Shown here: positions 736 to 13,840 of the stretch, one piece after another | How the letters are laid out: the number at the start of each line of letters is the position of its first letter | Position numbering within the stretch: the stretch's first letter is position 1 | DNA from: a virus | IMG/VR virus record: IMGVR_UViG_3300020577_010320 | DNA: 64,000 nt | Strand: one strand, 5' to 3' | Notes under the pieces: generated by a model | What the model saw: only the letters and a program-made list of their open reading frames with translations | What the model was told of the DNA's origin: nothing | The model's database searches: none | Translations under genes and position numbers: made by a program

Positions 736-962
736 CAGCCCTCCTCATCGAGGGTGAACAGATCGCCAGGGTCGCTCGGCAGATCCCACCACAAGAAATG
801 CATTTGGCGGTTACGGTAGTAGTCGAACCGCGGATGGCTGTACTGAACCTCCAGCTCCCGGTCCTCGTCGTCACACGGCTGGCACTGGAGGTCCCTGACC
901 GTCGAGACGCGGATGACGTCCTGCGTCCGCTCCACGTGATACACGCGCCACACGTCGGTCAT
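735..962 (-). CDS. tandem-array small protein, LPG...ELFxYDEEG-tail family
   Basis: ends ...WWDLPSDPGDLFTLDEEG*; 75 aa from MTDVW. Confidence 0.65.
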   Translation of the reverse strand: MTDVWRVYHVERTQDVIRVSTVRDLQCQPCDDEDRELEVQYSHPRFDYYRNRQMHFLWWDLPSDPGDLFTLDEEG

Positions 963-1207
963 CACCCATCCTCGTCGAACTCGAACAGTGTGTTGTGTGG
1001 ATAGGTTACGGCTCCGGGCAAGGAGTTCCACACCCTCCTGTCTGAGCGGGTCCGGCCGCACTCGCTCACCCGTCCGGTCGGGACCACTATCACTTCGAAC
1101 CGACCCTCCCACCCATCGTACGTCGTATGGAGCACAGTCTGACCGCACAGGCAGAGCGCTGACAGCAGTTGTCGCTTAACGCAGAATAGTGACACGTTGG
1201 TACGCAC
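962..1207 (-). CDS. tandem-array small protein, LPG...ELFxYDEEG-tail family
   Basis: ends ...WNSLPGAVTYPHNTLFEFDEDG*; TGAGTG junction. Confidence 0.6.
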   Translation of the reverse strand: MRTNVSLFCVKRQLLSALCLCGQTVLHTTYDGWEGRFEVIVVPTGRVSECGRTRSDRRVWNSLPGAVTYPHNTLFEFDEDG

Positions 1208-1453
1208 TCACCCCTCCTTGTCTAGAGTAAAGAGTTCATCGTCGTACGCCTGTCGCCACCTGTACAACCAGCCGCCGGGCAGGAGCTGCCACACGCGGGC
1301 GAGTTCGGGGTCGACCCACGAAATGGAACAGTCGACGTTACAACGCCAACCTCGCAGATGGGTGTCCACTAAGGCCGCCGGCGGGTGGCTGTTTTCCACG
1401 AAGTGCGCGCTGACGCACCGTCCGAACCGACGCATGTGTGAGGTTACACTCAC
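1208..1453 (-). CDS. tandem-array small protein, LPG...ELFxYDEEG-tail family
   Basis: ends ...WQLLPGGWLYRWRQAYDDELFTLDKEG*. Confidence 0.6.
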   Translation of the reverse strand: MSVTSHMRRFGRCVSAHFVENSHPPAALVDTHLRGWRCNVDCSISWVDPELARVWQLLPGGWLYRWRQAYDDELFTLDKEG

Positions 1454-1454
1454 T

Positions 1455-1745
1455 TCACCCCTCCTCGTCGAAGACGAATAGCTCGTTACACTTCCGCGTC
1501 TCTACCTCACACCCACCGGGTAGGTTCAGCCACACGTGTCGCTGCTGACCGGCCTGGTCGCGGTACCGCAGCCAGAACGACCAGACGACGACGCACGGGT
1601 ACTCCCAGCCGGCGTGTACCCCCACCCCCTGGGGGACGTCGTGGTACCTGGAACTCTTGACGACGCTCAGCCGGACGCCGGGTTTGGACCGCCCCGGACC
1701 CCTACGGACGATGTGGGCCGCCCTGTGAACACTAACGTTCGACAC
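1455..1745 (-). CDS. tandem-array small protein, LPG...ELFxYDEEG-tail family
   Basis: ends ...WLNLPGGCEVETRKCNELFVFDEEG*. Confidence 0.6.
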   Translation of the reverse strand: MSNVSVHRAAHIVRRGPGRSKPGVRLSVVKSSRYHDVPQGVGVHAGWEYPCVVVWSFWLRYRDQAGQQRHVWLNLPGGCEVETRKCNELFVFDEEG

Positions 1746-1748
1746 CGA

Positions 1749-2072
1749 TCAGCCCTCCTCGTCGTAAGTGAACAGTTCATCGTCGACGTCTGTCGTCAAC
1801 ACGGACTGGTCTCGGAAGACCCCGCCGCCCGGTAGTAGGTGCCACACGTCGTACAATTGGGCGTCCACGAACACGTCGCGGCTGTAGATGGAGAACTCCG
1901 TCCAGTACAGCGTGACTATCGGGTCGAAACTACCGTCGACCGGTATGTAGTCCGAGAACACACACGCCGCGTCATGGCCGACCGTGATCTCGCGCGCCTG
2001 TTCCCAGCCGCGGTCGGTGCAGCTCTCCGCGTAGAAGTAGAACTGCAGCGAGGTGCGAAACACGTAGGGCAT
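1749..2072 (-). CDS. tandem-array small protein, LPG...ELFxYDEEG-tail family
   Basis: ends ...WHLLPGGGVFRDQSVLTTDVDDELFTYDEEG*; ATG 6 nt after upstream TGA, SD GAGGAGGGG. Confidence 0.65.
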   Translation of the reverse strand: MPYVFRTSLQFYFYAESCTDRGWEQAREITVGHDAACVFSDYIPVDGSFDPIVTLYWTEFSIYSRDVFVDAQLYDVWHLLPGGGVFRDQSVLTTDVDDELFTYDEEG

Positions 2073-2077
2073 CGACG

Positions 2078-2398
2078 TCACCCCTCCTCGTCGAGGACGA
2101 ACAACTCGTCGAAGGGTCCCTCGCATTGTGAGTCCGAGTCGCAGCCTCCCGGCAGAAGAGCCCAAACCCGGCACAGCTCGGCGCAAACGAAGTCGCCAGT
2201 CCGAACGACGAGATACCGCTTCACCATCGCACACGCTCCGTAGGCGCAGACCTCGCGGTACATAGTACCGTAACGCCAGAACCCCTCTACGATGTCGTGC
2301 GGATAGTGCAGTTCTGCGTCAGGGTAGGCGAAAGGCGCCATCTCATTGTAGTAGCACCAACAGTCGACGTCGGATCGACCGACCGTACAGCAGGTCAT
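2078..2398 (-). CDS. tandem-array small protein, LPG...ELFxYDEEG-tail family
   Basis: ends ...WALLPGGCDSDSQCEGPFDELFVLDEEG*; GTGATGA junction. Confidence 0.65.
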   Translation of the reverse strand: MTCCTVGRSDVDCWCYYNEMAPFAYPDAELHYPHDIVEGFWRYGTMYREVCAYGACAMVKRYLVVRTGDFVCAELCRVWALLPGGCDSDSQCEGPFDELFVLDEEG

Positions 2399-2649
2399 CA
2401 CCCCTCCTCGTCATAGACAAACAATTCCCCGCGCATGGATCCACGACACATCCGAGGCAGCAGGTTGAGCAGTACACCGGTCGGCGAAGAGCGAAACTCC
2501 TTACGCACACACTCCTGGCTCGAAAGGGGTAAATACACGAGGTGATCGCTCGTCGCCATGTGAATGCGAGTCGTCTGGCCGAACTTTTTGTAGCAGACGT
2601 AGACTCCGATCGAGAACCGTCCCCGGCCCAAGTCGAACGGCTTATTCAT
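2398..2649 (-). CDS. tandem-array small protein, LPG...ELFxYDEEG-tail family
   Basis: ends ...LNLLPRMCRGSMRGELFVYDEEG*. Confidence 0.6.
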   Translation of the reverse strand: MNKPFDLGRGRFSIGVYVCYKKFGQTTRIHMATSDHLVYLPLSSQECVRKEFRSSPTGVLLNLLPRMCRGSMRGELFVYDEEG

Positions 2650-2858
2650 CACCCCTCCTCGTCGTGAACGTAAAGGTCGGCGTACCCAGGCATCAAGCGC
2701 CACATGACGTGGTCGGCGAGTCTGTTGAGTGACACGTCGATTACATACGCTACGCACCGCGTGTCTGGCGGGCACTCACCGGCGACGGAGTCTATAACGC
2801 CACCACGGTGCCCCCGTGTGTGGACGAATCTGATCAAGACGTGGTAACGCACGGTCAC
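2649..2858 (-). CDS. tandem-array small protein, LPG...ELFxYDEEG-tail family
   Basis: ends ...WRLMPGYADLYVHDEEG*. Confidence 0.6.
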   Translation of the reverse strand: MTVRYHVLIRFVHTRGHRGGVIDSVAGECPPDTRCVAYVIDVSLNRLADHVMWRLMPGYADLYVHDEEG

Positions 2859-3145
2859 CCCTCCTCGTCGAACACGAACAACTCTCGGAGCGTGTCCCGG
2901 TCCCAGTTCGGCCTAACGCCGCCTGGCAGGTTCAGCCACACGCGTTGGTCGTCTGGGTACACGCACTGCAGCGTAGTAAGTATTTGGGGCTCGCAGTCGA
3001 TAGATGCGTCCGGGTGACGGTGTACAGCCCAGTAGATCGGTTCAACGGGTATCGTCGATGCGAACGCCGCAACCTCGACGTAGTCCGGGGTGACTACGAT
3101 TACTCGTCGCATATAACGGCGGAGTAGGTAGTTGTACACGGTCAC
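2855..3145 (-). CDS. tandem-array small protein, LPG...ELFxYDEEG-tail family
   Basis: ends ...WLNLPGGVRPNWDRDTLRELFVFDEEG*. Confidence 0.6.
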   Translation of the reverse strand: MTVYNYLLRRYMRRVIVVTPDYVEVAAFASTIPVEPIYWAVHRHPDASIDCEPQILTTLQCVYPDDQRVWLNLPGGVRPNWDRDTLRELFVFDEEG

Positions 3146-3396
3146 CCCTCCTCGTCGTGGATGTACAACTCGTTCTCGTACACACCGTGCCGGCGAACGC
3201 CTGCAGCACCTGGCAGCTTCGCGTACCACCCCACCGGCGTTTGGGGTGTACCGAGGAAGCGGTTGATGTGCGTCTTGATGAGACGCCTCCCGTGTGCGTA
3301 CGTCCAAAACGCACCCAGCTCATATGCGTCTACGTGGATCACGTCCGTGTAGTATTCGCGCGAGGGGCCCCGGCTCACGACGAGCATCAGCTTCAT
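3142..3396 (-). CDS. tandem-array small protein, LPG...ELFxYDEEG-tail family
   Basis: ends ...WYAKLPGAAGVRRHGVYENELYIHDEEG*; ATGA overlap with upstream non-family gene. Confidence 0.6.
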   Translation of the reverse strand: MKLMLVVSRGPSREYYTDVIHVDAYELGAFWTYAHGRRLIKTHINRFLGTPQTPVGWYAKLPGAAGVRRHGVYENELYIHDEEG

Positions 3397-3650
3397 ACAT
3401 CCTCCAGGTCGACGCCGTCCCACAGCTCCTTGACGTCCACCGAGAACACCCCGGAGACGCCGGTGATCGCAGCCACGTGCGCCATGTCCGCCCGCCCGTG
3501 AACCAGCCCGCAGTCCAGCACCTCGTCGACCGTCATGCCGGCCTTCGTCAGGCGGCTCACGACGCCGGCCATCTTCTCCCGCATGAACGCCGCCTCTACG
3601 AGTACGCGGACGTCCTTGACGTCCCCCGACGCCTTACGCTTCTTCGCCAC
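3393..3650 (-). CDS. hypothetical small protein (non-family insert in array)
   Basis: 85-aa ORF; GTG start with AGGAG 6 nt upstream; no DEEG tail. Confidence 0.5.
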   Translation of the reverse strand: MAKKRKASGDVKDVRVLVEAAFMREKMAGVVSRLTKAGMTVDEVLDCGLVHGRADMAHVAAITGVSGVFSVDVKELWDGVDLEDV

Positions 3651-3660
3651 GGCGACTCCT

Positions 3661-3690
3661 AAAAAGAAAAACCGTCCCGGAGGACGGTGT
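3661..3690 (-). terminator. rho-independent terminator (minus strand)
   Basis: ACCGTCC-tccg-GGACGGT hairpin followed by TTTTTCTTTTT on minus strand, directly after 3729..3947. Confidence 0.6.
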
Positions 3691-3728
3691 GTTCTGCCGC
3701 AACCATAATGACAGTTTGGGGCCGCGTG

Positions 3729-3947
3729 TTAAACGACCCGCACGTACCTACCCCTACGCCCGTCCCAGCACTCGCGGGTGATCGTCAAGCTGGCCCCGCC
3801 CTTGACCAGCCGTCTGAGCAACTCCTCGGCGTCAGCCTTGGACGCCTGCGCCTCGCCGTTGGCGGGGAATCGGTAATCGGCCCCGGTACGGTCCTTGCCG
3901 TGGACGACCCACCGGTCCGGTAGGCTCACCTCGTTGTGCTTAGCCAT
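3729..3947 (-). CDS. hypothetical small protein (non-family insert)
   Basis: 72-aa ORF MAKHNEVSLPDRW...; followed by terminator. Confidence 0.5.
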   Translation of the reverse strand: MAKHNEVSLPDRWVVHGKDRTGADYRFPANGEAQASKADAEELLRRLVKGGASLTITRECWDGRRGRYVRVV

Positions 3948-3950
3948 CGC

Positions 3951-4168
3951 TCACCCTTCTTCGTCCCATTCGAACAGTGTGAACCCGGTCGGCATTTTCA
4001 GCCACACGGCGGTCCACTCCCACTGACGCCTGCCGCCGTCGATTATGGTTATGCGGTTCGTACGGTTGCAGTACAGCGGGCGTTCTAGACTACACCAGTA
4101 CCCGTCCACACTCGCCGAGATCGAGTGCGGGGTGTTCGGGTACTCTACGTGCCAGAGCCGCGTCAAGT
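3951..4168 (-). CDS. tandem-array small protein, LPG...ELFxYDEEG-tail family
   Basis: ends ...WLKMPTGFTLFEWDEEG*. Confidence 0.55.
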
Positions 4169-4371
4169 CAACCCTCCTCGTCCAATACGAACAGCTCACC
4201 GGGGCGTTCTGGACTCCACCCGGGAAGACGGTACCACAAGTGTTGGTCGAAGTACTTCGCTGTGCGGAAATTGAACCCCACAGTAAGGGCCACGTGACTG
4301 TCCTGCACGCACGACGGGCGCGACGCCCGCAACTCAAACGCGCACCAGTACCGCTCGATATTGCAAAACAT
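4168..4371 (-). CDS. tandem-array small protein, LPG...ELFxYDEEG-tail family
   Basis: 67 aa MFCNIERYW...WYRLPGWSPERPGELFVLDEEG*; length matches overlap-start. Confidence 0.65.
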   Translation of the reverse strand: MFCNIERYWCAFELRASRPSCVQDSHVALTVGFNFRTAKYFDQHLWYRLPGWSPERPGELFVLDEEG

Positions 4372-4595
4372 CACCCCTCCGCGTCCCAAGTGAACAGGTC
4401 GCCGTAGTTTGGCAGGCTGGTCCACACGACCACCCAGGACTGAACCCAGGATCCTTCGATAATACTCCTACGGAATACGTCTAACGCGTCCAAGTCACGA
4501 AACACTACCGGCACCGGTGAAGTGTACGGTTTGGGGATGAACGCGCACCACCCGACGTGGTAGGCGTTGTAAAACTTGATTAGGCGGCTACACAC
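4371..4595 (-). CDS. tandem-array small protein, LPG...ELFxYDEEG-tail family
   Basis: ends ...WTSLPNYGDLFTWDAEG*. Confidence 0.6.
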   Translation of the reverse strand: MCSRLIKFYNAYHVGWCAFIPKPYTSPVPVVFRDLDALDVFRRSIIEGSWVQSWVVVWTSLPNYGDLFTWDAEG

Positions 4596-4598
4596 GGT

Positions 4599-4790
4599 TC
4601 AGCCATCCTCGTCCAATACGAACAACTCACTAATCCACCGCTTCGTCCACCCTGGTAGTGAGCGCCACAAGAGCTGGTCGTTCGCGTTCGAATTCAGGTA
4701 GCGAAAGTCAAGTCCAACAACGTCAAAACAGTGACCGTTGCGGTCCGCCAGGGGGCAACAATCGCAGTTCCGTGACATGTAACACACCAT
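4599..4790 (-). CDS. tandem-array small protein, LPG...ELFxYDEEG-tail family
   Basis: 63 aa MVCYMS...WRSLPGWTKRWISELFVLDEDG*. Confidence 0.65.
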   Translation of the reverse strand: MVCYMSRNCDCCPLADRNGHCFDVVGLDFRYLNSNANDQLLWRSLPGWTKRWISELFVLDEDG

Positions 4791-5047
4791 CACCCCTCCC
4801 AGTCGTAAACGAACAGTTCCGCCTCGTCCCCCCATCGGTCGAGGTAGTCGAACCCGCTGCCGCCGGGGAGAGACGTCCATACGCGCAAGAACTCACCCGG
4901 ATGGGCCCACTCTCCGCCCACGACCGTAGTACGGAGGCGACCGTAAAACCCCGTCGGGAGGAGTGTCACTTCGTGCACCAGAGCCACATACCAGTTACCC
5001 ACGTCGGGCGTGTAGTGGCGCTCCACGTATTCGAAGACGCGGGCCAT
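4790..5047 (-). CDS. tandem-array small protein, LPG...ELFxYDEEG-tail family
   Basis: ends ...WTSLPGGSGFDYLDRWGDEAELFVYDWEG*. Confidence 0.6.
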   Translation of the reverse strand: MARVFEYVERHYTPDVGNWYVALVHEVTLLPTGFYGRLRTTVVGGEWAHPGEFLRVWTSLPGGSGFDYLDRWGDEAELFVYDWEG

Positions 5048-5286
5048 CACCCTTCCTCATCGAGTACGAACAGTTCCCGTAAGTCTCTGAACCCAGGCAG
5101 GTTCCAATACAAGTCGTCAGTCCAACCGTCGTCGTCGAATCTACAGTTAGCCACAGACTCGAGGCTGACGAGAAACGTTATCGGCTGCGAGTGTCCGAAC
5201 GCGGACACCCGGAACAACACGCCCACATTTGCGTACCCGCCGGCGCAACGGCGTAAGTCCTCCACTACGGCTGGGAGCAGAGTCAT
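5047..5286 (-). CDS. tandem-array small protein, LPG...ELFxYDEEG-tail family
   Basis: ends ...WNLPGFRDLRELFVLDEEG*. Confidence 0.6.
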   Translation of the reverse strand: MTLLPAVVEDLRRCAGGYANVGVLFRVSAFGHSQPITFLVSLESVANCRFDDDGWTDDLYWNLPGFRDLRELFVLDEEG

Positions 5287-5588
5287 CATCCCTCCTCATC
5301 GAGTACGAACAAAGAAGCGTGTTGCGGCGAACAGGCGACGCCGCCCGGCAGCATGTGCCACAACTTCGTGTCTTCATACGCCTCCGCCGGCTCGGATAAA
5401 TCCTCCGAGAGAAGCCCTTTGGGAGTCACCACCCTGCGCCACCCGACGTAGCCCGAACTGCGGACCACTCTGTACACCCCGGCGCCTCGCGCCAGCGGGC
5501 ACGTCGTCACGACCAGGTGCCACTCGTACCACGCCGGGTTCGGTCTGTCGACGGCGACGTGACGGTAGTCGTAGGGCCACTGCACCAC
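5286..5588 (-). CDS. tandem-array small protein, LPG...ELFxYDEEG-tail family
   Basis: ends ...WHMLPGGVACSPQHASLFVLDEEG*. Confidence 0.6.
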   Translation of the reverse strand: MVQWPYDYRHVAVDRPNPAWYEWHLVVTTCPLARGAGVYRVVRSSGYVGWRRVVTPKGLLSEDLSEPAEAYEDTKLWHMLPGGVACSPQHASLFVLDEEG

Positions 5589-5819
5589 TCACCCCTCCTC
5601 GTCGTAAGTGAACAACTCGTCAGGGCGGGACGGGCGCCAACCCGGTAACGCCCGCCACAAACGATGCGACTCCGGACTCCAACCCGCACGACCCTCGTCG
5701 CTGCGATCGAGCGCGGCGACGACGCCGCCCAGGACAATGACGTCCTCCATGTCAATGCGGTGCCCGTCGGCCCGGTAGACGTACCAATGCGACGAGCCGC
5801 GTTCCATACGTTTGACCAT
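5589..5819 (-). CDS. tandem-array small protein, LPG...ELFxYDEEG-tail family
   Basis: ends ...WRALPGWRPSRPDELFTYDEEG*. Confidence 0.6.
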   Translation of the reverse strand: MVKRMERGSSHWYVYRADGHRIDMEDVIVLGGVVAALDRSDEGRAGWSPESHRLWRALPGWRPSRPDELFTYDEEG

Positions 5820-6019
5820 CACCCCTCCGCGTCGAAGACGAACAGCTCGTCCAGGGCGTCAAAACTCCAACCCGGTAACAGCGACCACAGCTCGCCCCGG
5901 GTTGCGGTATAACCCCACCGGACGTGCGGCGGGAAGATGATGAGGGCGAACCTGGAATCATCGAACGAATCGATCAGGCGAACCGAACGCATCGTTCGTT
6001 CCATGTAGTACGGGGTCAT
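5819..6019 (-). CDS. tandem-array small protein, LPG...ELFxYDEEG-tail family
   Basis: ends ...WSLLPGWSFDALDELFVFDAEG*. Confidence 0.6.
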   Translation of the reverse strand: MTPYYMERTMRSVRLIDSFDDSRFALIIFPPHVRWGYTATRGELWSLLPGWSFDALDELFVFDAEG

Positions 6020-6216
6020 CACCCCTCCCCGTCGAACTGATACAACTCCGCATAGTTCGGCATCGAGTCCCACACGTTACTAGCCGTGTACCTCTCCGTG
6101 TACACACTCAACGTCCGCCCGCGGTGCGGGACGTCGCCGTTGTACGCCGTGACCAAGATGATCCGCCCGCCGGCGTCGCTGCGGCGGGCGGTGCAAACGA
6201 GCTCCGTCGTAACCAT
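6019..6216 (-). CDS. tandem-array small protein, LPG...ELFxYDEEG-tail family
   Basis: ends ...WDSMPNYAELYQFDGEG*. Confidence 0.55.
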   Translation of the reverse strand: MVTTELVCTARRSDAGGRIILVTAYNGDVPHRGRTLSVYTERYTASNVWDSMPNYAELYQFDGEG

Positions 6217-6410
6217 CACCCCTCCTCGTCGCAAATGAACAAGTCACTAAGAGGATACAGACGCCAACCCGGTAAAAGCGACCACAGCACCTTATCTCTG
6301 GAGTACGCGTCCATGAGAGACGGGTACTGACGCCTGACCGAATCGACGCGTCCACACTGGTAACAGCACACCACGTAACCGTCACGCTCACGCGTCATGT
6401 ACTGTAGCAT
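6216..6410 (-). CDS. tandem-array small protein, LPG...ELFxYDEEG-tail family
   Basis: ends ...WSLLPGWRLYPLSDLFICDEEG*. Confidence 0.6.
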   Translation of the reverse strand: MLQYMTRERDGYVVCCYQCGRVDSVRRQYPSLMDAYSRDKVLWSLLPGWRLYPLSDLFICDEEG

Positions 6411-6619
6411 CACCCCTCCCCATCGAACACGAACAACTCGTCACAAGTTCCACCACCTCGGTTGTAGTCGCCCGGCAGGTTTTCCCACCAGACGGGGTAG
6501 TCCGGCAAGTGCGGGTAATACACTACGTCGACCTCCGCCAAACCCACGTACAACTCGACGCGCGGGGATGCTGACACGGAAACGTCGTAACACCTAACAA
6601 GGTCTTTGAATTGTCGCAT
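6410..6619 (-). CDS. tandem-array small protein, LPG...ELFxYDEEG-tail family
   Basis: ends ...WENLPGDYNRGGGTCDELFVFDGEG*. Confidence 0.6.
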   Translation of the reverse strand: MRQFKDLVRCYDVSVSASPRVELYVGLAEVDVVYYPHLPDYPVWWENLPGDYNRGGGTCDELFVFDGEG

Positions 6620-6831
6620 CACCCCTCCTCGTCGTAGGTGTACAGCGACTGGGCGTCGGGCAGAAGACACATCACGCCGCCCACGTCCAACAGTTTTTCG
6701 TTCGGCGCCCACACGACCATCACATCCCCGACCCTACGCCGCCAGTCGCAGTCGCTAATACGCACGACCCAGCCGGACCACCCCATCAACAAGGAGTCCA
6801 GGACCAACTCGCGCTGCAGGCTATACGTCAT
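6619..6831 (-). CDS. tandem-array small protein, LPG...ELFxYDEEG-tail family
   Basis: ends ...LLPDAQSLYTYDEEG*; TAATG overlap with HAD gene stop. Confidence 0.55.
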   Translation of the reverse strand: MTYSLQRELVLDSLLMGWSGWVVRISDCDWRRRVGDVMVVWAPNEKLLDVGGVMCLLPDAQSLYTYDEEG

Positions 6832-7352
6832 TACCTGTCGACCTCGCCGAATCGGGTGGACAGGGCGCACAACTTCTCCTCCACCGCGCGACTAACGGTA
6901 GAGATCGAAACCCAGTCGGACAGGCGGTGCGGCTCCAACGACCAGTGAATGAACGTCCCGCCGCGGGCCTCGAACCCCTCCTTGTGTCGGAGGTCGTCGT
7001 CGATCAGTACGGCCCTCGGGTGGGCGACCTGATACTTCGACACACAGAGCATGAAGTTGTCGCGCAGCTCGGGTCGGTGCTCAGCGACCCAGGCGGTCTT
7101 ACCCTCGAACACACCCCGCCGAGCACCGGGAGCCGACGGGATCTTGGTCAGCAAGAACGCGGACTCGCCGAAGTCTTGATTGACGGACCCGAGCCAGTCG
7201 CGGATTACCGGGACGAGGTACCGGTTGCCCGGAGCCGGCGGTAAGGAGGACCAGAACTTCTTGCTGGTGTACCCCTTGGTCGCCATCCTGTCCTTCAAAC
7301 GCTGGTGAGTGTCGACAAGAACTCCGTCCATGTCGATGTACACGGTGAACAC
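6831..7352 (-). CDS. HAD-superfamily 5'(3')-deoxyribonucleotidase-like hydrolase
   Basis: MFTVYIDMDGVLVD (DxDGV motif I) ... VLIDDDLRHKEGFEARGGTFIHW; 173 aa. Confidence 0.6.
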   Translation of the reverse strand: MFTVYIDMDGVLVDTHQRLKDRMATKGYTSKKFWSSLPPAPGNRYLVPVIRDWLGSVNQDFGESAFLLTKIPSAPGARRGVFEGKTAWVAEHRPELRDNFMLCVSKYQVAHPRAVLIDDDLRHKEGFEARGGTFIHWSLEPHRLSDWVSISTVSRAVEEKLCALSTRFGEVDR

Positions 7353-7874
7353 GGAAATGCCCTCCAGTTGCGATTAAACGGACTGTAACGGACGATGTGT
7401 GGTCAAGACGACCAGGAACCCATCTCAAGCCCTGGACGTCTTAAACGCGAAATATGGAGAAACGCGGTAGGAGTGGGTTGGGCGGGGGTGGAGTGGACTA
7501 CGGCGAATCCGATCGGCTGAGCTAGGTTGCGTCCTGTTTAAGATTAAACGCCCCAGGATCGACGATCTGGGTACTGGATGAAATCTGAGTCACCCTCGTG
7601 GGCTCAGTGTCTTAAAACGCGTTTAATCGCAAAACTGGGGGAGTTCCTTTATAAAGGATCTCAGTCGGTTTTTGGCGATTTTCCGTAACTCTGTAGTGTC
7701 TTTTTCCTGCTTTGAGGAAAAAGACACGGCTTTCTTCTTCTTAACCATATTTCTTAAGAAGAAGAAGAAGAAGAAAGACAGCTGCAATATATCGACGGCT
7801 CCGACGCCCCTTTTTCGACCGTCTTCGACCGGAGTGTTTACCATCTTGGTAAACTTAGGATTCTCACCAATTCC
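7353..7874. promoter_or_regulatory. AT-rich structured intergenic island with TTAAACG iterons, perfect hairpins and (AAG)n
   Basis: GATTAAACG/CGTTTAATC copies at ~7372, 7441, 7548, 7612, 7621; 12-bp perfect hairpin GTGTCTTTTTCC...GGAAAAAGACAC at 7696-7727; TTCTTCTTCTTAA...TTAAGAAGAAGAA hairpin; (AAG)6; local GC far below flanks. Confidence 0.5.
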
Positions 7875-8114
7875 TCATCCTTCCTGGTCATGAGTGTACA
7901 GCTCGTGCGGATCGTCACGACCGCCTGGCAGTAATGCAGCAAAACCTCGAGGTCCGACACCGTAACCGTATTCGAGTGCGCTGGCGACCCGCGGTGGTAC
8001 CCTCCCCACCCTGCCGCCAAGAACCCCAGGCTGGTCGCTGTCGAACCGGCGCACCTCGACTCCGTCGTAGAACCTGCTCATGCCATATGACTTGGACACG
8101 TCATCCCTCTTCAT
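7875..8114 (-). CDS. tandem-array small protein, LPG...ELFxYDEEG-tail family
   Basis: ends ...ALLPGGRDDPHELYTHDQEG*. Confidence 0.55.
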   Translation of the reverse strand: MKRDDVSKSYGMSRFYDGVEVRRFDSDQPGVLGGRVGRVPPRVASALEYGYGVGPRGFAALLPGGRDDPHELYTHDQEG

Positions 8115-8343
8115 CGTAGACGAACAACTCGCACCACTGGTCCCACCATTGTTGTGAGTCGGGCATCATTTGACAGCTGCGGGCAGCGTTCCCCGGCAAC
8201 GCCTTCCAAACCGACAAGTCTTGGTTCGGTGTGACGGCCTGTGGGTGGCGCACCGTACTCAGGATGTGGCAGCCACGCGACAGCAGATACACCGCCGTCC
8301 CACCGTACTGTCGGTGTAAGGCTACGAACTGATCCACTGTCAC
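8101..8343 (-). CDS. tandem-array small protein, LPG...ELFxYDEEG-tail family
   Basis: ends ...WKALPGNAARSCQMMPDSQQWWDQWCELFVYDEEG*. Confidence 0.6.
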   Translation of the reverse strand: MTVDQFVALHRQYGGTAVYLLSRGCHILSTVRHPQAVTPNQDLSVWKALPGNAARSCQMMPDSQQWWDQWCELFVYDEEG

Positions 8344-8741
8344 CCCTCCTCGTCCCAAACGAACAAGGCTAGCACCCACTCCGTCGTCGACCCGCCCACG
8401 TGGTCTGTGGGGAGAGTGATCCAGAAGTCGACTGGAACACCTTTCGGGCGTTCTATCCAACCCGCATAGCTGACTCGACCGGTCGCTTTGTTGTGTCGGT
8501 CGAGGCAGACGCCGTCGTCGCCGCGCAGCGGACGCAGGTATTGCGGCGACCGGCCGCCGTCTACCTCGTCCCACACGAACAGCTCGTCCGGCGGGGCCCA
8601 CCCACGCGACCGGCGGTACCCTCCCGGCAGTTCTAGGGTTGACGCGTTTGCGTCGTGCTCACACACCCAGCTGGTGACGCCGTTAATGTTGCAGGTGTAG
8701 ACGCCCTCTTCGACCCGATGCATTTCGAATTCTGCAGTCAT
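8340..8741 (-). CDS. two-unit in-frame fusion of the LPG...DEEG-tail family
   Basis: internal ...LELPGG...DELFVWDEVDGG... plus terminal ...WITLPTDHVGGSTTEWVLALFVWDEEG*. Confidence 0.6.
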   Translation of the reverse strand: MTAEFEMHRVEEGVYTCNINGVTSWVCEHDANASTLELPGGYRRSRGWAPPDELFVWDEVDGGRSPQYLRPLRGDDGVCLDRHNKATGRVSYAGWIERPKGVPVDFWITLPTDHVGGSTTEWVLALFVWDEEG

Positions 8742-8986
8742 CACCCCTCCCCGTCGTTTACGTAGAGTTCGCAGAACGCGCTATCTGCGCCGCCCGCCAT
8801 CGCGCGACTGCGGTCAGCGTCGCCGGGTAGTAGCATCCAGAACGCGTCTCCCAGATGACTCACGTGCGGGTACATGACGCTTGCCTCCGGTGCGTCATCG
8901 GTGTACACCACCGAAACGAACGGGACGCCGTACTCACACACGTAGTACTCCCTCACCACGAAGTCGATGGTCTTGATGGGCATCAT
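8741..8986 (-). CDS. tandem-array small protein, LPG...ELFxYDEEG-tail family
   Basis: ends ...WMLLPGDADRSRAMAGGADSAFCELYVNDGEG*; ATGATGA junction. Confidence 0.6.
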   Translation of the reverse strand: MMPIKTIDFVVREYYVCEYGVPFVSVVYTDDAPEASVMYPHVSHLGDAFWMLLPGDADRSRAMAGGADSAFCELYVNDGEG

Positions 8987-9384
8987 CCCTCCTCGTCCCA
9001 CGCGAACAGTTCGTCGGCCTCATTGTTGCCGCCGTACCTCGGGAGTAGCATCCACAGCTCGTCGGGGACCCCGCCCGGCCTGAGGCAGCCCCCCACGAGG
9101 TCGGACCATTCCCACACCACGTTGTATCGATACAGATCGACCCCGACGTCGCTTCTGTCCGGCCACACGTACGTCAGCGAGGCGCCGCCGTCGACCTCGT
9201 CCCACACGAACAGGTCGTCCCGTCTCCCGTAACCTGGTAGGAGGCCGACGACGACGATCGATTGTTGACGGTGTGTACTTTTGTTGAGGTCGTAGCACAC
9301 CACGGTCCGGCTACAGTATGTTGGACCGCCGCCATGTGCCACCACCCCGACCCTGGTCCTGGTCAAGATGAACTCGGTCGCCAT
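8983..9384 (-). CDS. two-unit in-frame fusion of the LPG...DEEG-tail family
   Basis: internal ...LLPGYGRRDDLFVWDEVDGG... plus terminal ...WMLLPRYGGNNEADELFAWDEEG*. Confidence 0.6.
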   Translation of the reverse strand: MATEFILTRTRVGVVAHGGGPTYCSRTVVCYDLNKSTHRQQSIVVVGLLPGYGRRDDLFVWDEVDGGASLTYVWPDRSDVGVDLYRYNVVWEWSDLVGGCLRPGGVPDELWMLLPRYGGNNEADELFAWDEEG

Positions 9385-9614
9385 CATCCCTCCTCGTCGA
9401 AGACGAACAACTCGTCACAAGTCGACGGGCTGCTCCGACTACAACCGCCCGGCAACAGCTGCCACCACTCGTTCGGCTCCCAGTCCTTCAGGTGTAGGTA
9501 CGCGACGTGGTTGCCGGTCACCGCGTTCAAATCAACTTCCACGACCGGCGTGTCGTAAAACAGCGGCCGGGTGTAAATCCTTACCAACGCGTAACTCGAT
9601 TCGGTCGCCATCAT
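9384..9614 (-). CDS. tandem-array small protein, LPG...ELFxYDEEG-tail family
   Basis: ends ...WQLLPGGCSRSSPSTCDELFVFDEEG*. Confidence 0.6.
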   Translation of the reverse strand: MMATESSYALVRIYTRPLFYDTPVVEVDLNAVTGNHVAYLHLKDWEPNEWWQLLPGGCSRSSPSTCDELFVFDEEG

Positions 9615-9904
9615 CCCTCCTCGTCTAGGACGAACAGCGTCGCTTTGTCGGGGAGCAGGTACCACAGTCGCTGGTGGTCGGCCAGCCGACACGGCCGGTC
9701 CAGCTCGCCGAGCCAGGGCCTTGTCCGCCACTGACACCGGTCGTTCGACTGCAGTAAGCGGTACGCCCCGTCGTACAGCGGCGCAGACTTGGACCCGCAG
9801 GACAGCATGACCCGAAGCGTCAGCGGTCGACCGGGGCACGGCAGCGGCCTGAAGTCGATCCACCACTTAGGGCTACGGTATTTGGTCAGGTCGAACACGG
9901 TCAC
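9611..9904 (-). CDS. tandem-array small protein, LPG...ELFxYDEEG-tail family
   Basis: ends ...WYLLPDKATLFVLDEEG*. Confidence 0.6.
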   Translation of the reverse strand: MTVFDLTKYRSPKWWIDFRPLPCPGRPLTLRVMLSCGSKSAPLYDGAYRLLQSNDRCQWRTRPWLGELDRPCRLADHQRLWYLLPDKATLFVLDEEG

Positions 9905-10113
9905 CCATCCTTGTCGTAGATGAATAGTTCGTTCGAGGTGTAAAACGTGTCGTTCATCGTGTCGTGCGCGACGACGCGCAGCTGAGGCAGCGCCTGCCAC
10001 AGGTAGTCGTACTCGACGGGGATCGGCGGGACGACCTGCACCGTCTTGTTGGTCTTGGTACACGACAGCCACACGCCGTCCGTATACCTGTCGGCGAAGT
10101 CGAACACGGTCAC
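9901..10113 (-). CDS. tandem-array small protein, LPG...ELFxYDEEG-tail family
   Basis: ends ...WQALPQLRVVAHDTMNDTFYTSNELFIYDKDG*. Confidence 0.55.
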   Translation of the reverse strand: MTVFDFADRYTDGVWLSCTKTNKTVQVVPPIPVEYDYLWQALPQLRVVAHDTMNDTFYTSNELFIYDKDG

Positions 10114-10433
10114 CCCTCCTCGTCGTGGACGTAGAGCTCGGCTTCGCACTCGATACTGCTACACTTTCCGGCCCAACCCCCGGGCAGGTTCATCCACACG
10201 GCGACGAACGCGTCGTCAGACACGACGGGTTCGTGCGTCACGTGACTATCCTTAAACCACTCGGAGTCGACGAAGAAGCCGCTGACGGTCGGGGGGTCGC
10301 GGTACCAGCGTCGGGGGCGGTCGTTCGGTGAGACCCACTGGACGCCGATGTCCAGGTCGCCGTCCTCGTACGGCGGAGACAGGTCGAGTCTGAACACCCG
10401 CAAACTTTCGTCGGGTAAGCGGGGTACCATCAT
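10110..10433 (-). CDS. tandem-array small protein, LPG...ELFxYDEEG-tail family
   Basis: ends ...WMNLPGGWAGKCSSIECEAELYVHDEEG*. Confidence 0.6.
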   Translation of the reverse strand: MMVPRLPDESLRVFRLDLSPPYEDGDLDIGVQWVSPNDRPRRWYRDPPTVSGFFVDSEWFKDSHVTHEPVVSDDAFVAVWMNLPGGWAGKCSSIECEAELYVHDEEG

Positions 10434-10666
10434 CCCTCCTCGTCGTAAGTGAAGAGTTCGCTGCCGCACGGCAACCGAATGCGCGTCAGCATCAGCTGAC
10501 GGATGCCGATGTTGAAGCCTTCTTCGAGACACAACCGGATCTGGACGCTGTGCGAAATCCTCAGCCAGTCCCTCAAGAGTCTAGTGTATGCCTCAGGCCA
10601 AAGCCGCACGTCGACGTATCGAAACCCAGGCCACGGCGCGGATTCCCACGGTTTCGGCTTCATCAC
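10430..10666 (-). CDS. tandem-array small protein, LPG...ELFxYDEEG-tail family
   Basis: ends ...RLPCGSELFTYDEEG*. Confidence 0.55.
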   Translation of the reverse strand: MMKPKPWESAPWPGFRYVDVRLWPEAYTRLLRDWLRISHSVQIRLCLEEGFNIGIRQLMLTRIRLPCGSELFTYDEEG

Positions 10667-11001
10667 CCTTCCTCGTCATGGACGTAGAGTTCGGCGTCGA
10701 TCAGCCGACACTCGTCGTATATACCGCGGTCGGATCCAGGCAGTAGGTTCCACAGCCCCCAGTGTTGCCGGTTTATCCCGCAACACACGAAGTTTGAGAC
10801 GCCGTCGGGCGACACGCTGTCGCCGCCCGGGAACACCTGGCCCAGCCGTTCGCCGTTGTACCACGTCTTCGGCGTACCGTCCTCACCCAACCACTGGACG
10901 CCGACCTTGGCGTCGTCGTCATCGAATTCGTTAAATTCCGGGTCCCAGACTTCGTGTCTAAACACCCGCATTCTCACGTGCGGCGGCGGTTTCGTCATCA
11001 T
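10663..11001 (-). CDS. tandem-array small protein, LPG...ELFxYDEEG-tail family
   Basis: ends ...WNLLPGSDRGIYDECRLIDAELYVHDEEG*. Confidence 0.6.
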   Translation of the reverse strand: MMTKPPPHVRMRVFRHEVWDPEFNEFDDDDAKVGVQWLGEDGTPKTWYNGERLGQVFPGGDSVSPDGVSNFVCCGINRQHWGLWNLLPGSDRGIYDECRLIDAELYVHDEEG

Positions 11002-11288
11002 CCTTCCTCGTCGTGGACGTAGAGTTCGGAGTCGAAGGACGGGAACTCGGCGTACTGCGGGAGCAGCAGCCACACGCGGACGGCCTCCGGATCCAGGCCG
11101 ACGTACCGGTTGGTGGTGCGTGTCCCGCCCAGGCGCACAGCGACGCCCGACCAGAGCGTGTCGTTGGATATCTGGTCGTTCTGGTGTTTAGTCGCGCGTA
11201 TCAGAACTTGGCGGGGACCGATCGTCCTGTGGTGAAAGTACTCGAACACAAACCGCCTGTTGGCGGTCGTTATCCGCTCGTACATCAT
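10998..11288 (-). CDS. tandem-array small protein, LPG...ELFxYDEEG-tail family
   Basis: ends ...WLLLPQYAEFPSFDSELYVHDEEG*. Confidence 0.6.
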   Translation of the reverse strand: MMYERITTANRRFVFEYFHHRTIGPRQVLIRATKHQNDQISNDTLWSGVAVRLGGTRTTNRYVGLDPEAVRVWLLLPQYAEFPSFDSELYVHDEEG

Positions 11289-11294
11289 ACGCGG

Positions 11295-11549
11295 TCACCT
11301 CATGTAGGCGGCGTAGACCTCGATCAGCTCGAGCGCGGTGCGCTCGTCCATGTAGTACGGCTCCTGGACAGGCTCGGGGTTGACGATCGTCTTGACGGAT
11401 CGGCGGCGGACGAACCCGCCCACCAGACACGCCACGCAGACGGACAGGACCGTCGCGGCGAGCGTCGTCTCCCAGACGCCAGACGACGCTAAGTACGACG
11501 CGATCACACTAAACACGGCATCCTCCATTGGCTGTGGTTTGAAACTCAA
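11295..11549 (-). CDS. small membrane protein (non-family insert in array)
   Basis: 84 aa with hydrophobic segment ATVLSVCVACLVGGFV; no DEEG tail. Confidence 0.45.
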   Translation of the reverse strand: MSFKPQPMEDAVFSVIASYLASSGVWETTLAATVLSVCVACLVGGFVRRRSVKTIVNPEPVQEPYYMDERTALELIEVYAAYMR

Positions 11550-11788
11550 CCTTCTTCATCGTAGACGTACAGCTCGTCGCAACCTTCCTGGTACGCGTCC
11601 GGCCCGGCGCGGGCCAGGAACCAGCCGGGTAGGAGCCATACAAGGTCGTATTCGTGGGGCGGTACACACATACAATCCAAGCAATCCAGGTCGATCCACT
11701 CCGTCACCTCACCGTTGCGGGGGTCTCGAACCACCTCAACCATCGCAACTCTCGCCCGCCGCAGGCGCTTAACTGGGTCGGCCATCAC
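11546..11788 (-). CDS. tandem-array small protein, LPG...ELFxYDEEG-tail family
   Basis: ends ...WLLPGWFLARAGPDAYQEGCDELYVYDEEG*. Confidence 0.6.
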   Translation of the reverse strand: MMADPVKRLRRARVAMVEVVRDPRNGEVTEWIDLDCLDCMCVPPHEYDLVWLLPGWFLARAGPDAYQEGCDELYVYDEEG

Positions 11789-12000
11789 CCCTCCTCGTCA
11801 CGGACGAACAGTTCGGCTTCTTGGCAACTCCGAAGAGTGCCGGGAAGTCCCCATCCGGGCAGTTGACGAACGAACACCCGGTGGTCGTAACTCATGAGTC
11901 TGTCGTCTATCAAACTTATTGAGTGCAGAATAGCCGGACCGCCCGTGGAGCCGATGTACGTCGTACTCAGCCCCACGCGTATCACTTCGACCGTCATCAC
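11785..12000 (-). CDS. tandem-array small protein, LPG...ELFxYDEEG-tail family
   Basis: ends ...RQLPGWGLPGTLRSCQEAELFVRDEEG*. Confidence 0.6.
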   Translation of the reverse strand: MMTVEVIRVGLSTTYIGSTGGPAILHSISLIDDRLMSYDHRVFVRQLPGWGLPGTLRSCQEAELFVRDEEG

Positions 12001-12191
12001 CCCTCCTCGTCGTAGGTGAACAACTCACTGAACTGTCTGTCCCCATCGGAACGGACGCACGGCAGTTGGTCCCACAAGATCCAGAAGTCGTTTCCAGCCG
12101 AACCACCCCTGCCGACGATCAATTTGTCGCTATCGGACCAGGCCCACCACGCGCCGCCGCACCGTCGCAACCGCCGATAAGCTGGTCTCAC
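11997..12191 (-). CDS. tandem-array small protein, LPG...ELFxYDEEG-tail family
   Basis: ends ...WDQLPCVRSDGDRQFSELFTYDEEG*. Confidence 0.6.
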   Translation of the reverse strand: MRPAYRRLRRCGGAWWAWSDSDKLIVGRGGSAGNDFWILWDQLPCVRSDGDRQFSELFTYDEEG

Positions 12192-12703
12192 GGTACACCC
12201 CTCGGTACTGTAGTCGGGGCTATCACTCCCTGAGCCCTTGCGTCGTTTTCCCGCAGCCGTTCGAACACCCGACGCGTAGCGGCCGGGTCACCGCCGGTGT
12301 ACAAAGCCCAGGCGAAATAATGGCGGCACGCCTTGCGCCATCTGGAGTCGGGTTGCCATCCGGAGTCGCCGACGTACGGAGAGTCCGCGCCCTGAACCAG
12401 ACCGTACACTGGTACGACCAGGTAGTCGCCCAGGTGCTTGCCGTACGTGTAGTACTGGTAGCCGTTGAACCCGTACCACATCGCGTCCAGGCACGGGGCC
12501 TGGCCCCAAGAGTCCACGGTCGCCAGGCAGCCACGCCACTCGGCGACCGCGCGGGCGACGTGGATCCGCCCCAAGCGCACGGTCTTCTCGGGCGTGTCGC
12601 CGTGGAGCGGGAGTACAGCTCGGGACGCCGTCAGGATCATCTCGGCCGCGTCTCGGACGCGGAAGTCGTCGACGCCCAGCAGGAACACCAGGATCGCCGT
12701 CAT
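12188..12703 (-). CDS. hypothetical protein; paralog of 37765..38256
   Basis: MTAILVFLLGVDDFRVRDAAEMIL... vs MYIVVSVLVVALGADDFRTREAATSAL... shared N-terminal architecture and internal motifs. Confidence 0.5.
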   Translation of the reverse strand: MTAILVFLLGVDDFRVRDAAEMILTASRAVLPLHGDTPEKTVRLGRIHVARAVAEWRGCLATVDSWGQAPCLDAMWYGFNGYQYYTYGKHLGDYLVVPVYGLVQGADSPYVGDSGWQPDSRWRKACRHYFAWALYTGGDPAATRRVFERLRENDARAQGVIAPTTVPRGVP

Positions 12704-12719
12704 GTCAACCTCCTTGTGG

Positions 12720-12917
12720 TCAGCCGTCCTCGTCCAACACGAACACCTCGTACCCTGCGTCGCGGCCGGGCAGAGAGTCTATGATTCGGTTGAACCCCCC
12801 AAGCTCCCGGTCGTTAAACCTCCATGACGCAGTGCGTAAGTGGATCAGGCGTGCGGGGCGGCCGCTGTGAAGGACGGTCAGGTACGTGTAACTCTCACGC
12901 AGCACGAACCAAGTCAT
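12720..12917 (-). CDS. tandem-array small protein, LPG...ELFxYDEEG-tail family
   Basis: ends ...IDSLPGRDAGYEVFVLDEDG*. Confidence 0.55.
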   Translation of the reverse strand: MTWFVLRESYTYLTVLHSGRPARLIHLRTASWRFNDRELGGFNRIIDSLPGRDAGYEVFVLDEDG

Positions 12918-13147
12918 CACCCCTCCTCGTCGTAGGTGAAGAGTTCTCCCACAGCCCGACGGCCGTACCACCCAGGCAGGCGTTGCCACACCAGTCTGGT
13001 CCGATCATCTAAGAAGCCCAGACGACCGCCGTACACATTGTCGCACGTTAAGAACGCGTAGTACTTGTTCGTCCCAGGAACTAACAAATCGACGAACGCG
13101 TTGTCCCGGCCCATGCCGAACGCCTTGCCGGTGTAGGCGGTCATCAT
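12917..13147 (-). CDS. tandem-array small protein, LPG...ELFxYDEEG-tail family
   Basis: ends ...WQRLPGWYGRRAVGELFTYDEEG*. Confidence 0.6.
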   Translation of the reverse strand: MMTAYTGKAFGMGRDNAFVDLLVPGTNKYYAFLTCDNVYGGRLGFLDDRTRLVWQRLPGWYGRRAVGELFTYDEEG

Positions 13148-13374
13148 CCCTCCTTGTCGTAGGTGAACAGGTCGTCGTTGGTCGGCAGGTCGCTGTACAC
13201 GGTGCCCACGATCTGGACGTGGTCGTCGTACGGCTTCAGGCCGATCGTCTCCGTGTGCCCGACCTGCTCGTACCGCCCGACGCCGTCGCCTCGGTACCGG
13301 CGTACGACGACGCACGTCTTACCATACCAGTAGGGCAGACGACGCAGCGCGATCACCGGTGAGTACGCGCTCAT
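13144..13374 (-). CDS. tandem-array small protein, LPG...ELFxYDEEG-tail family
   Basis: ends ...YSDLPTNDDLFTYDKEG*. Confidence 0.55.
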   Translation of the reverse strand: MSAYSPVIALRRLPYWYGKTCVVVRRYRGDGVGRYEQVGHTETIGLKPYDDHVQIVGTVYSDLPTNDDLFTYDKEG

Positions 13375-13604
13375 CACCCCTCCCCGTCGTAGGCGAACAG
13401 TTCGCGATCCCTGGTACACCCGGAACGCACGTCGAAGCCGCCGGGCAGTCTGTCTACGAACGAGTAAACGTCGTCGGTCAGAACCCTGACCGGCTGCAGC
13501 GTCACAAGGGGCCCGAGCCCCATCCAAGTATCACCGATCCTGCGATACACGCACATCTGGTTGGACGACGCCCACCGGCGTAGCGATAACGGTTCGGCCA
13601 TCAC
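13374..13604 (-). CDS. tandem-array small protein, LPG...ELFxYDEEG-tail family
   Basis: ends ...VDRLPGGFDVRSGCTRDRELFAYDGEG*. Confidence 0.6.
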   Translation of the reverse strand: MMAEPLSLRRWASSNQMCVYRRIGDTWMGLGPLVTLQPVRVLTDDVYSFVDRLPGGFDVRSGCTRDRELFAYDGEG

Positions 13605-13840
13605 CCCTCCTCATCGTAGGTGAATAGCTCGTCGCGCCCCAACGTAATGAGTCTCCCGTCACTGCGCCGACGATTGCTGCCTGGAAGCTTGTCGATTAGA
13701 GTTCGCAACGAATCAGCGATCCACCGCTGCTCCACGTTCTGTAGTCTTAGCCCCTGGCACGTGTGGAGTGTACAGTCCTGCCAGTACCAGTGTACGTCGA
13801 TCGCGTCGTACATCCCTCTGGTTACACTTATGTACATCAC
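13601..13840 (-). CDS. tandem-array small protein, LPG...ELFxYDEEG-tail family
   Basis: ends ...IDKLPGSNRRRSDGRLITLGRDELFTYDEEG*. Confidence 0.6.
   Translation of the reverse strand: MMYISVTRGMYDAIDVHWYWQDCTLHTCQGLRLQNVEQRWIADSLRTLIDKLPGSNRRRSDGRLITLGRDELFTYDEEG

Follow-up and report, generated by a model that had tools for sequence, protein, structure and literature searches.

An AT-rich 132-nt cassette identical in two uncultured phage contigs, and a predicted structured leader beside it, as a candidate control region at a gene-module boundary

The subject of this study is a 64,000-nt stretch of the IMG/VR virus record IMGVR_UViG_3300020577_010320 (hereafter the window), in which, according to a crude gene map of the 64 kb based on third-codon-position GC content (GC3), the minus strand carries nearly all genes. 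An earlier note, made from the letters alone, had singled out an intergenic island at positions 7353-7874 as a candidate promoter/operator cluster, replication origin, or small-RNA locus. We found that this island consists of three parts, a 69-nt spacer, a 132-nt AT-rich core (hereafter E), and a 321-nt leader, and that the most informative unit, missed at first reading, is the 132-nt core and not the whole 520 bp. E is present without a single difference in another phage contig, and the identity stops where the downstream genes of the two phages diverge. We favor the reading, to which we give an even chance, that the island is a composite minus-strand control region at a module boundary, in which a promoter/stem-loop cassette would precede a structured leader with a role in translation.

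An exact-pattern scan of IMG/VR recovered E in the 93.5-kb contig IMGVR_UViG_3300020577_005315 (locus L006), where positions 6274-6405 correspond to window positions 7805-7674 at 132 of 132 nt. By BLAST, the two contigs align at 97.9% over 144 nt and at 84% over 225 nt; at the former level, L006 shares with the window only 7668-7810, within which the run 7674-7805 is identical and unbroken. Both contigs hold arrays of small genes of one family (R..W..LPG..ELFxxDEEG*), and in L006, as in the window, the last array gene stops exactly 69 nt before E. When compared without gaps, the two spacers agree at 40 of 69 positions (58%), E at 100%, and the 69 nt after E at 17 of 69 (25%), which is the random level. 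Identity ends at 7673/7674. Downstream of E, the window encodes a 5'-3' deoxyribonucleotidase-like (NT5C-like) protein and then further array genes, whereas L006 (6479-9905), in which the next gene begins only ~70 nt past E, encodes an orphan 281-aa protein for which we found no homologue, an HldE-like PfkB-kinase/cytidylyltransferase, and an Mre11/SbcD-like phosphoesterase. The proteins of 25 kb from the L006 contig had no match in the window at E < 1e-8, except for spurious frames through E. Since E lies 69 nt past the array stop in both contigs and the spacer is homologous, the two phages have E at the same ancestral position, where an array ends.

E occurs once in the 64-kb window and once in the 25 kb of the second contig (L006 and L012). 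Further copies were sought by exact pattern in IMG/VR, JGI metagenome contigs, and GTDB representative genomes and by BLASTN in INPHARED and PLSDB, and none was found beyond L006; a candidate at another locus (L010) was only a chance 19-mer match. A degenerate DNA pattern for the array C terminus (ELFxxDEEG*) retrieved from IMG/VR and JGI only the L006/L012 contig, plus single chance matches.

Assembly graphs provided a second line of evidence. The exact NT5C-like protein was found on five Logan contigs, from runs SRR32380193, SRR8942265, SRR10761721, and SRR8942262. These contigs are 100% identical to the window and all begin at 7703, and the Logan contig that carries the upstream 79-aa array gene (L005) ends at 7776. 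Both break points fall exactly 30 nt inside the ends of E (7703-7674+1 = 30 and 7805-7776+1 = 30), and the Logan graphs use k=31, so that k-1 = 30. Because the breaks lie k-1 inside each end of the stretch that L006 has in identical form, E is a repeat node, with at least two different neighboring sequences on either side of it in those samples. Outside E, the same contigs are unbroken for up to 8.4 kb and end only in the conserved C-terminal segment of array paralogues; thus, E is the sole exact shared segment in its neighborhood. An invertible segment, a hairpin telomere, a physical end, and microsatellite variation were considered as causes of the breaks, but the k-1 arithmetic makes them unnecessary. 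If our reading of the island is right, E is the one place where k=31 assemblies of this phage fall apart in several public data sets, and contigs could be wrongly joined there.

The stretch without genes has exactly the limits given in the earlier note, 7353 and 7874 (522 nt), and is the largest gap in the GC3-based map of the window that is not attributable to a missed small gene. On the coding strand, it separates two translationally coupled gene blocks. The island had also been described as much lower in GC than its flanks; measured against flanks of ~60-65%, this holds for ~7600-7850 (38-49%), to which the strong AT-richness is confined, but not for 7353-7600 (52-57%). Scans for tRNA and tmRNA found none in the island. 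Rfam returned no family at gathering score over the whole window and, at E≤10 over 7250-7950, only low-complexity sub-threshold matches. Self-BLAST of the island against the window revealed no second or partial copy. We also considered a decayed array gene and rejected it, as a hidden Markov model of the array family found nothing in the six-frame translations of the island, whereas a control region was strongly positive.

On the coding strand, E opens with GTCGGAGCCGTCGATATATTGCAGCTGTC, followed by hairpin 2 ((CUU)7...AAGAAGAAGAAAG), hairpin 1, and then CACTACAGAGTTACGGAAAATCGCC. The AT-rich promoter-like box at its 5' end, GTCGATAT (also written GTCGATATATT), resembles, in degenerate form, a motif that recurs in the window (see below); 15 nt farther upstream is an A-rich block, GAAAAA (7811-7816). 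The (AAG)n tract that had been reported is indeed present as (AAG)6 at 7756-7773, as is the 13-bp hairpin near it (7732-7744/7754-7766); the perfect hairpin at 7696-7727 exists as well, with a stem of 13 bp and not the 12 bp first given. Both hairpins and the tract exceed chance. E folds better than its shuffles on both strands, with z = -4.2 for the plus strand, where the fold forms a closed three-way junction, and z = -3.1 for the minus strand. A U-rich tail follows hairpin 1 only when it is read on the plus strand, and a scan of 6800-8600 for terminator-like elements returned one hit, hairpin 1 on the plus strand, with 1.5 expected by chance. Two long open reading frames (ORFs) that cross E matched only the window's own call or nothing among 5.8 billion proteins, and the frames open through E have different C termini in the two contigs.

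The recurrent motif is GTCATWAT, found five times in the window (at 3712, 39580, 46216, 48322, and 55239) against 0.62 expected; 0 of 100 shuffles reached 5. All five sites are on the coding strand, 19-20 nt past a TAA stop (TAAA at four sites, TTAAC at 3712), which gives a bipartite motif, TAAA-N16-GTCATWAT, whose TAA doubles as the stop codon of the upstream gene. Most sites precede a clean local hairpin and then the next Shine-Dalgarno sequence (SD) and start codon; a minimum free energy (MFE) test of these hairpins did not discriminate them from the GC-rich background. A sixth site with the same geometry lies in L012, another part of the L006 contig. The fixed 17-nt spacing of CTAAAT-like and CATTAT-like hexamers is promoter-like, and the motif is a candidate promoter consensus of the clade. 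At the motif spacing upstream of E's box, an A-rich block reads GAAAA in the window and CAAAT in L006, and window position 29141 has CAAAT-N15-GTCGGTAT. On this resemblance, E's box may belong to the GTCATWAT motif. A second candidate motif, (C/T)ACTAC, was discarded as confounded by Tyr-Tyr codons. We regard a promoter-like box with 5' stem-loops as the most plausible reading of E and not as a result.

The folds of E would also suit a small structured RNA of ~70 to 140 nt, either on the plus strand and ending at hairpin 1 or on the minus strand with both hairpins. We consider this unlikely. The excess of folding over shuffles on both strands, the three-way junction of the plus-strand fold, and the terminator-like character of hairpin 1 with GGCUUUCUUCUUCUU on the plus strand are consistent with such an RNA, but E has no Rfam match at gathering score and the sub-threshold matches are low-complexity noise. 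Moreover, on the plus strand conservation extends only 22 nt ahead of hairpin 1 and takes in no promoter, and functional constraint alone would not be expected to give 132 identical positions out of 132 next to a 58% spacer.

We see a small chance that E or the island is a genome terminus or concatemer junction, that is, joined linear ends with a short terminal repeat. T7-like junctions combine the longest noncoding region of the genome with short repeats, promoters, and hairpin-forming sequences for concatemer processing. The island resembles a T7-type junction in being the only long noncoding region, with genes running in one direction across it, and in its short repeats beside hairpins and its assembly breaks. 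It differs in the repeat-node behavior of E and in the near-immediate downstream gene of L006. A short direct terminal repeat would yield a single circular de Bruijn path and not a node with k-1 overlaps on both sides, which argues indirectly against this reading; the L006 gene starts ~70 nt after E, and no terminase or packaging gene was recognized nearby.

The perfect identity of E over 132 nt beside a spacer at 58% exceeds what functional constraint usually produces, and recent recombination or gene conversion at E would therefore be an economical explanation. Because it is identical in different genomic contexts, E may act as a homology patch at which co-occurring phages exchange downstream gene modules. 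Independent insertion into the two phage genomes of a mobile element resembling a miniature inverted-repeat transposable element is an improbable alternative. Such an element would account for the sharp borders of identity, the foreign AT-rich composition, the imperfect terminal complementarity (the closing stem of the plus-strand fold), and the presence of at least two contexts in the same samples. However, E lies exactly 69 nt past the last array stop in both contigs, next to a homologous spacer, so that the sites are not independent. The borders (GGGGC/AAAAA in the window and GGGGT/CCAAA in L006) show no target-site duplication, the terminal inverted repeats are imperfect, and searches of IMG/VR, INPHARED, PLSDB, the GTDB representatives, and the JGI set gave no further copy of E.

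The leader carries the boxes that the earlier note had called iterons, with five or more copies in both orientations. They are clustered above chance, although exact copies are fewer: TTAAACG occurs four times (plus strand, 7374, 7441, and 7544; minus strand, 7620) and the 9-mer GATTAAACG three times (7372, 7542, and, on the minus strand, 7620), to which one degenerate copy, TTAAAACG, at 7613 can be added. Outside the island, TTAAACG is found only twice in the 64 kb, such that 4 of its 6 copies fall within 253 nt. In dinucleotide shuffles of 7353-7673, a 7-mer with at least 4 copies arose in 21/2000 and a 9-mer with at least 3 copies in 7/2000; the clustering exceeds chance even against the local composition. 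Three boxes are direct and one is inverted, with start-to-start spacings of 67, 103, and 76 nt and a unit of 7-13 nt, and 7372-7380 and 7620-7628 form the center of a 28-nt inverted repeat (75%).

In the minus-strand RNA, 7620-7640 is predicted to pair with 7361-7380 at P≥0.93, in both the MFE and the centroid structures. The helix covers most of the SD, GGAGGG (7360-7365), located 7 nt upstream of the GTG start of the NT5C-like gene: G7365, G7364, G7362, and G7361 pair with C7637-C7640 (P = 0.97-1.00), A7363 is bulged, and G7360 is outside the helix. The inverted GCGAUUAAACGCG segment (7619-7633) can pair with each of three direct copies (7542-7551, 7441-7449, and 7372-7380), and folds of progressively longer transcripts (truncations 7680-7530 and 7680-7430) take box 3 first, box 2 next, and box 1 last. 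Since the boxes are complementary to one upstream segment and the final helix covers the SD, the folding predictions favor alternative RNA partners, the last of which would occlude the SD, over iterons bound by an initiator. Within the leader, the interval 7450-7500 has a plus-strand run rich in G (in the leader RNA, rich in C) and a 14-nt direct repeat, CGCGGTAGGAGTGG/CGGGGGTGGAGTGG, 20 nt apart, and is predicted to be largely unpaired.

A replication origin, in which TTAAACG iterons would stand beside an AT-rich unwinding element with hairpins, is a very doubtful alternative. The island does resemble the iteron origins of plasmids and lambda-like phages in its short repeats clustered beside an AT-rich segment, here 7650-7850 with 38-47% GC in a 62% GC genome. 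In contrast to the 17-22-bp phased iterons of such origins, the repeats here fall short in length, come at irregular distances, and differ in orientation, and the two most extended copies form the 28-nt inverted repeat that includes the downstream SD. Contrary to what an origin should display in the GC-skew check proposed earlier, the trend does not change at the island: cumulative GC skew keeps falling through it and levels off only near 46-47 kb. The neighboring genes are nucleotidase-like and small array genes, without any replication match in Pfam or PHROG and without an initiator or helicase gene. Finally, the iteron part is absent from L006, where the AT-rich core is present.

A further concern is that the window contig might be chimeric at the shared 132-nt repeat, so that its two flanks would not be physically linked. 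E is a k=31 repeat node and Logan keeps the flanks on separate contigs, as a chimera would have it, but we think it highly improbable: both flanks occur in run SRR32380193 at 100% identity, with the same small-gene family, on the same strand, and at similar GC, and a 132-nt repeat is within reach of the paired reads and larger k of standard metagenome assemblers. E itself would be real even in a chimeric contig. Last, a leader-peptide attenuator, in which a minus-strand frame (...LSFFFFFFLRNMVKKKK...) and alternative CUU/AAG pairing with hairpin 1 would sense stalling at Phe/Lys codons, is scarcely credible. A search of 701 nt against Rfam aligned Phe_leader (RF01859) to minus-strand positions 7693-7794 with 23.4 bits (E = 0.18), far below the 55-bit gathering threshold, and the score is driven by low-complexity UUC repeats. 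The 3' arm of hairpin 1 does have another possible partner on its 5' side, but the ORF continues across both hairpins (54-77 aa, with different C termini in the two contigs), lacks a convincing SD/start, and encodes a protein that is not called elsewhere, and no U-tract comes after hairpin 1 on the minus strand.

Of the three possibilities raised at the outset for the island, regulation fits best, because the site is on the coding strand between coupled gene blocks, has an AT-rich box at its start, and has a leader predicted to pair with the downstream ribosome binding site; the origin lacks a skew change, an initiator gene, and regular long repeats. We propose the following order of events on the minus strand. 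Past the last coupled array gene and the 69-nt spacer, E, with its box and two perfect 13-bp stem-loops, would most likely terminate or insulate the upstream unit, start or stabilize the downstream transcript, or do both. In the 321-nt leader that follows, the anti-SD strand would pair in turn with the boxes, and the final and longest helix would bury the SD of the deoxyribonucleotidase-like gene, which could thereby be controlled at translation.

Several observations weigh against the proposal of a control region. E's box matches GTCATTAT at only 6/8 positions, which is not significant alone, and a sigma-70 consensus scan of 6800-8600 returned 0 promoters. On the coding strand, no U-tract accompanies either hairpin, and the upstream unit therefore has no evident classical intrinsic terminator. 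Both stems are perfectly Watson-Crick paired and both copies are identical, which makes the strand, and an RNA versus a DNA form, indistinguishable. Folding of the entire leader exceeds that of its shuffles by a modest margin only (z = -2.0), and the leader has no homologue. The second context of E was not recovered in the Logan samples, from which the L006 downstream gene is absent according to the protein index. Finally, E is single-copy in each region examined, whereas the promoter-early stem-loop (PeSL) cassettes of T4-type phages, with which we compare it below, are multicopy.

It is also possible, if doubtful, that E is a portable 132-nt noncoding cassette, made up of an AT-rich box for polymerase recognition and two perfect stem-loops, that recombines among co-occurring, RNA polymerase (RNAP)-encoding high-GC phages, unrelated to T4, and serves as a fixed joint for swaps of gene blocks, coupled in the window to a leader whose three TTAAACG decoy partners would time the translation of a nucleotide-metabolism gene. 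If so, module shuffling through conserved linkers of promoter and stem-loop would extend beyond T4-type phages to uncultured high-GC phages with a multisubunit RNAP and very large arrays of small paralogues. The TAAA-N16-GTCATWAT motif and the SD-sequestering leader would offer testable handles on gene regulation in an otherwise uncharacterized phage group. The coordinates of the features are collected in Table 1.

Table 1. Features of the island, its neighbors, and the window (positions in the window unless stated otherwise)
Feature	Position	Strand	Basis
Last array gene, upstream neighbor, 79 aa (...LYTHDQEG*), TGA stop 7875-7877	7875..8114	minus	ORF list, family alignment, exact protein on Logan contig L005
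Spacer, 69 nt, from array stop to core, with 7-bp hairpin GTTTACC (7836-7842)/GGTAAAC (7848-7854)	7806..7874	minus	
Core cassette E, 132 nt, ~36-40% GC	7674..7805	minus	
AT-rich promoter-like box GTCGATATATTG, 5' end of E	7785..7796	minus	Resemblance to TAAA-N16-GTCATWAT
Hairpin 2, (CTT)n/(AAG)n stem, 13-bp perfect register 7732-7744/7754-7766, with alternative registers	7730..7777		Inverted-repeat search, folds
Hairpin 1, 13-bp perfect stem 7696-7708/7715-7727, 6-nt loop	7696..7727		Inverted-repeat search
Leader, 321 nt, carrying the TTAAACG boxes, absent from L006	7353..7673	minus	
Palindrome TCCTTTATAAAGGA, perfect, 14 nt, small hairpin in every fold	7645..7658		
Predicted long-range helix, upstream arm (CCCCCAG..GCGAUUAAACG on RNA), with inverted TTAAACG box 7620-7626	7620..7640	minus	
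Box 3 GATTAAACGC, alternative partner of 7619-7628	7542..7551	minus	Inverted repeat, 15 nt at 87%
Box 2 TTAAACGCG, alternative partner of 7618-7626	7441..7449	minus	Inverted repeat, 9 nt, perfect
Predicted long-range helix, downstream arm, with TTAAACG box 7374-7380	7361..7380	minus	
5'-3' deoxyribonucleotidase-like gene (NT5C/HAD), downstream neighbor, 173 aa, GTG start 7350-7352	6831..7352	minus	
GTCATWAT sites (strand given for those in the window)	3705-3712, 39573-39580, 46209-46216, 48315-48322, 55232-55239; L012:949	minus	
RNA polymerase fusion, 1457 aa: beta (Rpb2 domain 6) and beta'-N (Rpb1 domains 1 and 2)	59037-63410	minus	
beta'-C protein (Rpb1 domain 5), 627 aa	55257-57140	minus	
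Thg1-like tRNA-His guanylyltransferase, RNA ligase, tRNA-Asn(GTT), tRNA-Met(CAT)	19611-20501, 30314-31501, 25907-25991, 58931-59000		

The NT5C-like assignment of the downstream gene is based on PHROG 2643 (E = 6e-9), the Pfam NT5C match being below threshold (E = 0.0024). In three low-GC (34%) IMG/VR phage contigs (L007-L009, ~9540-10450), a cytidylyltransferase homologue is located directly upstream of a distant NT5C-like homologue.

The array family to which the 79-aa gene belongs comprises, over window positions 19-29197 on the minus strand (for example, 7875-13840 and 1-6870), more than 55 tandem small genes of 60-130 aa, all of one family, in which each stop codon overlaps the start codon of the next gene. 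The C-terminal codons, GAyGAGGAGGGnTGA, double as the SD of the next gene and its overlapping GTG/ATG start. As the same codons carry these signals, part of the "protein" conservation of the family may be a translational-coupling signal. Two adjacent array genes (~22462 and ~22692, minus strand) are near-identical over at least their first 70 nt, which points to a recent tandem duplication within the array. In addition, a 22-nt sequence, GGTCGTTACGCACTACCTGGCG, is repeated at 14798 and 15623 on the minus strand, in intergenic/gene-start regions ~825 nt apart.

The source of the window is probably an uncultured phage with its own multisubunit RNAP (Table 1). The beta subunit and beta'-N are fused here, and phiKZ-like phages have been described with more finely split subunits. 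The tRNA scan of the window found two tRNAs, which together with the Thg1-like enzyme and the RNA ligase suggest a toolkit for tRNA repair or maintenance. No relative was found among 50,697 deposited phage genomes, by megablast of 6800-8600 or by tblastn of an 815-aa window protein. Other AT-rich or structured gaps were seen: the gap 46885-46945 (41% GC) holds a perfect 15-bp hairpin, TTAATAACGTGTACC/GGTACACGTTATTAA; the gap 58903-59036 also holds long clean hairpins; and the 34-kb Logan contig SRR32380193_1227 (L018) begins at window position 63480, in an AT-rich gap 70 nt upstream of the RNAP gene.

Among known systems, the leader is comparable to SD-sequestering leaders, namely, translational riboswitch platforms and the RNA thermometers ROSE and fourU, in its predicted long-range helix on the downstream SD and its alternative partners for the anti-SD strand. 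It differs from them in that Rfam detected no ligand aptamer or known family and in that three repeated partner boxes are unusual; its structure is, moreover, a prediction. For the box of E and the recurrent motif, a parallel is offered by RNAP-encoding jumbo phages, which reportedly have conserved ~10-nt AT-rich early-promoter motifs centered near -10 that differ among phages (PMC7598289). Like the early promoters of phiKZ and AR9 (PMC7598289), the motif is short (~10 nt) and AT-rich, belongs to a phage with a multisubunit RNAP, and recurs upstream of coding-strand genes; unlike them, it has another sequence and a TAAA at a fixed distance upstream, and the version in E is degenerate.

The closest described system is that of the PeSLs, ~100-bp conserved cassettes of a promoter and a stem-loop that mediate module shuffling in T4-type phages (Arbiol et al. 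2010, PMC2839356; Comeau et al. 2014, PMC4122927), where they are abundant among the orphan genes of hyperplastic regions and provide homology for module exchange (PMC2839356, PMC4122927). E departs from PeSLs in several respects. The early promoter of PeSLs is strong, sigma-70-like, and preceded by AT-rich DNA, whereas E has only an AT-rich GTCATWAT-like box; in PeSLs, a terminating stem-loop comes before the promoter, whereas in E the stem-loops follow the box and have no coding-strand U-tract. PeSLs are found in many copies per genome, and E was seen once per ~25-64 kb, with at least two contexts per sample according to the graph breaks. The phage here is a high-GC, RNAP-encoding phage and not T4-like, and the comparison is one of sequence. 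By analogy, we file E as an element that would work like a PeSL without being a member of that family. It has the same general build, a conserved intergenic composite of ~100-130 nt, common to different phages (132 nt identical and 144 nt at 98%, between flanks that cannot be aligned), in which an AT-rich promoter-like region is joined to stable stem-loops, and it likewise lies among many small orphan genes. As would be expected of a recombination linker, identity stops where the neighboring modules differ, and the gene content of the two phages differs exactly at the cassette.

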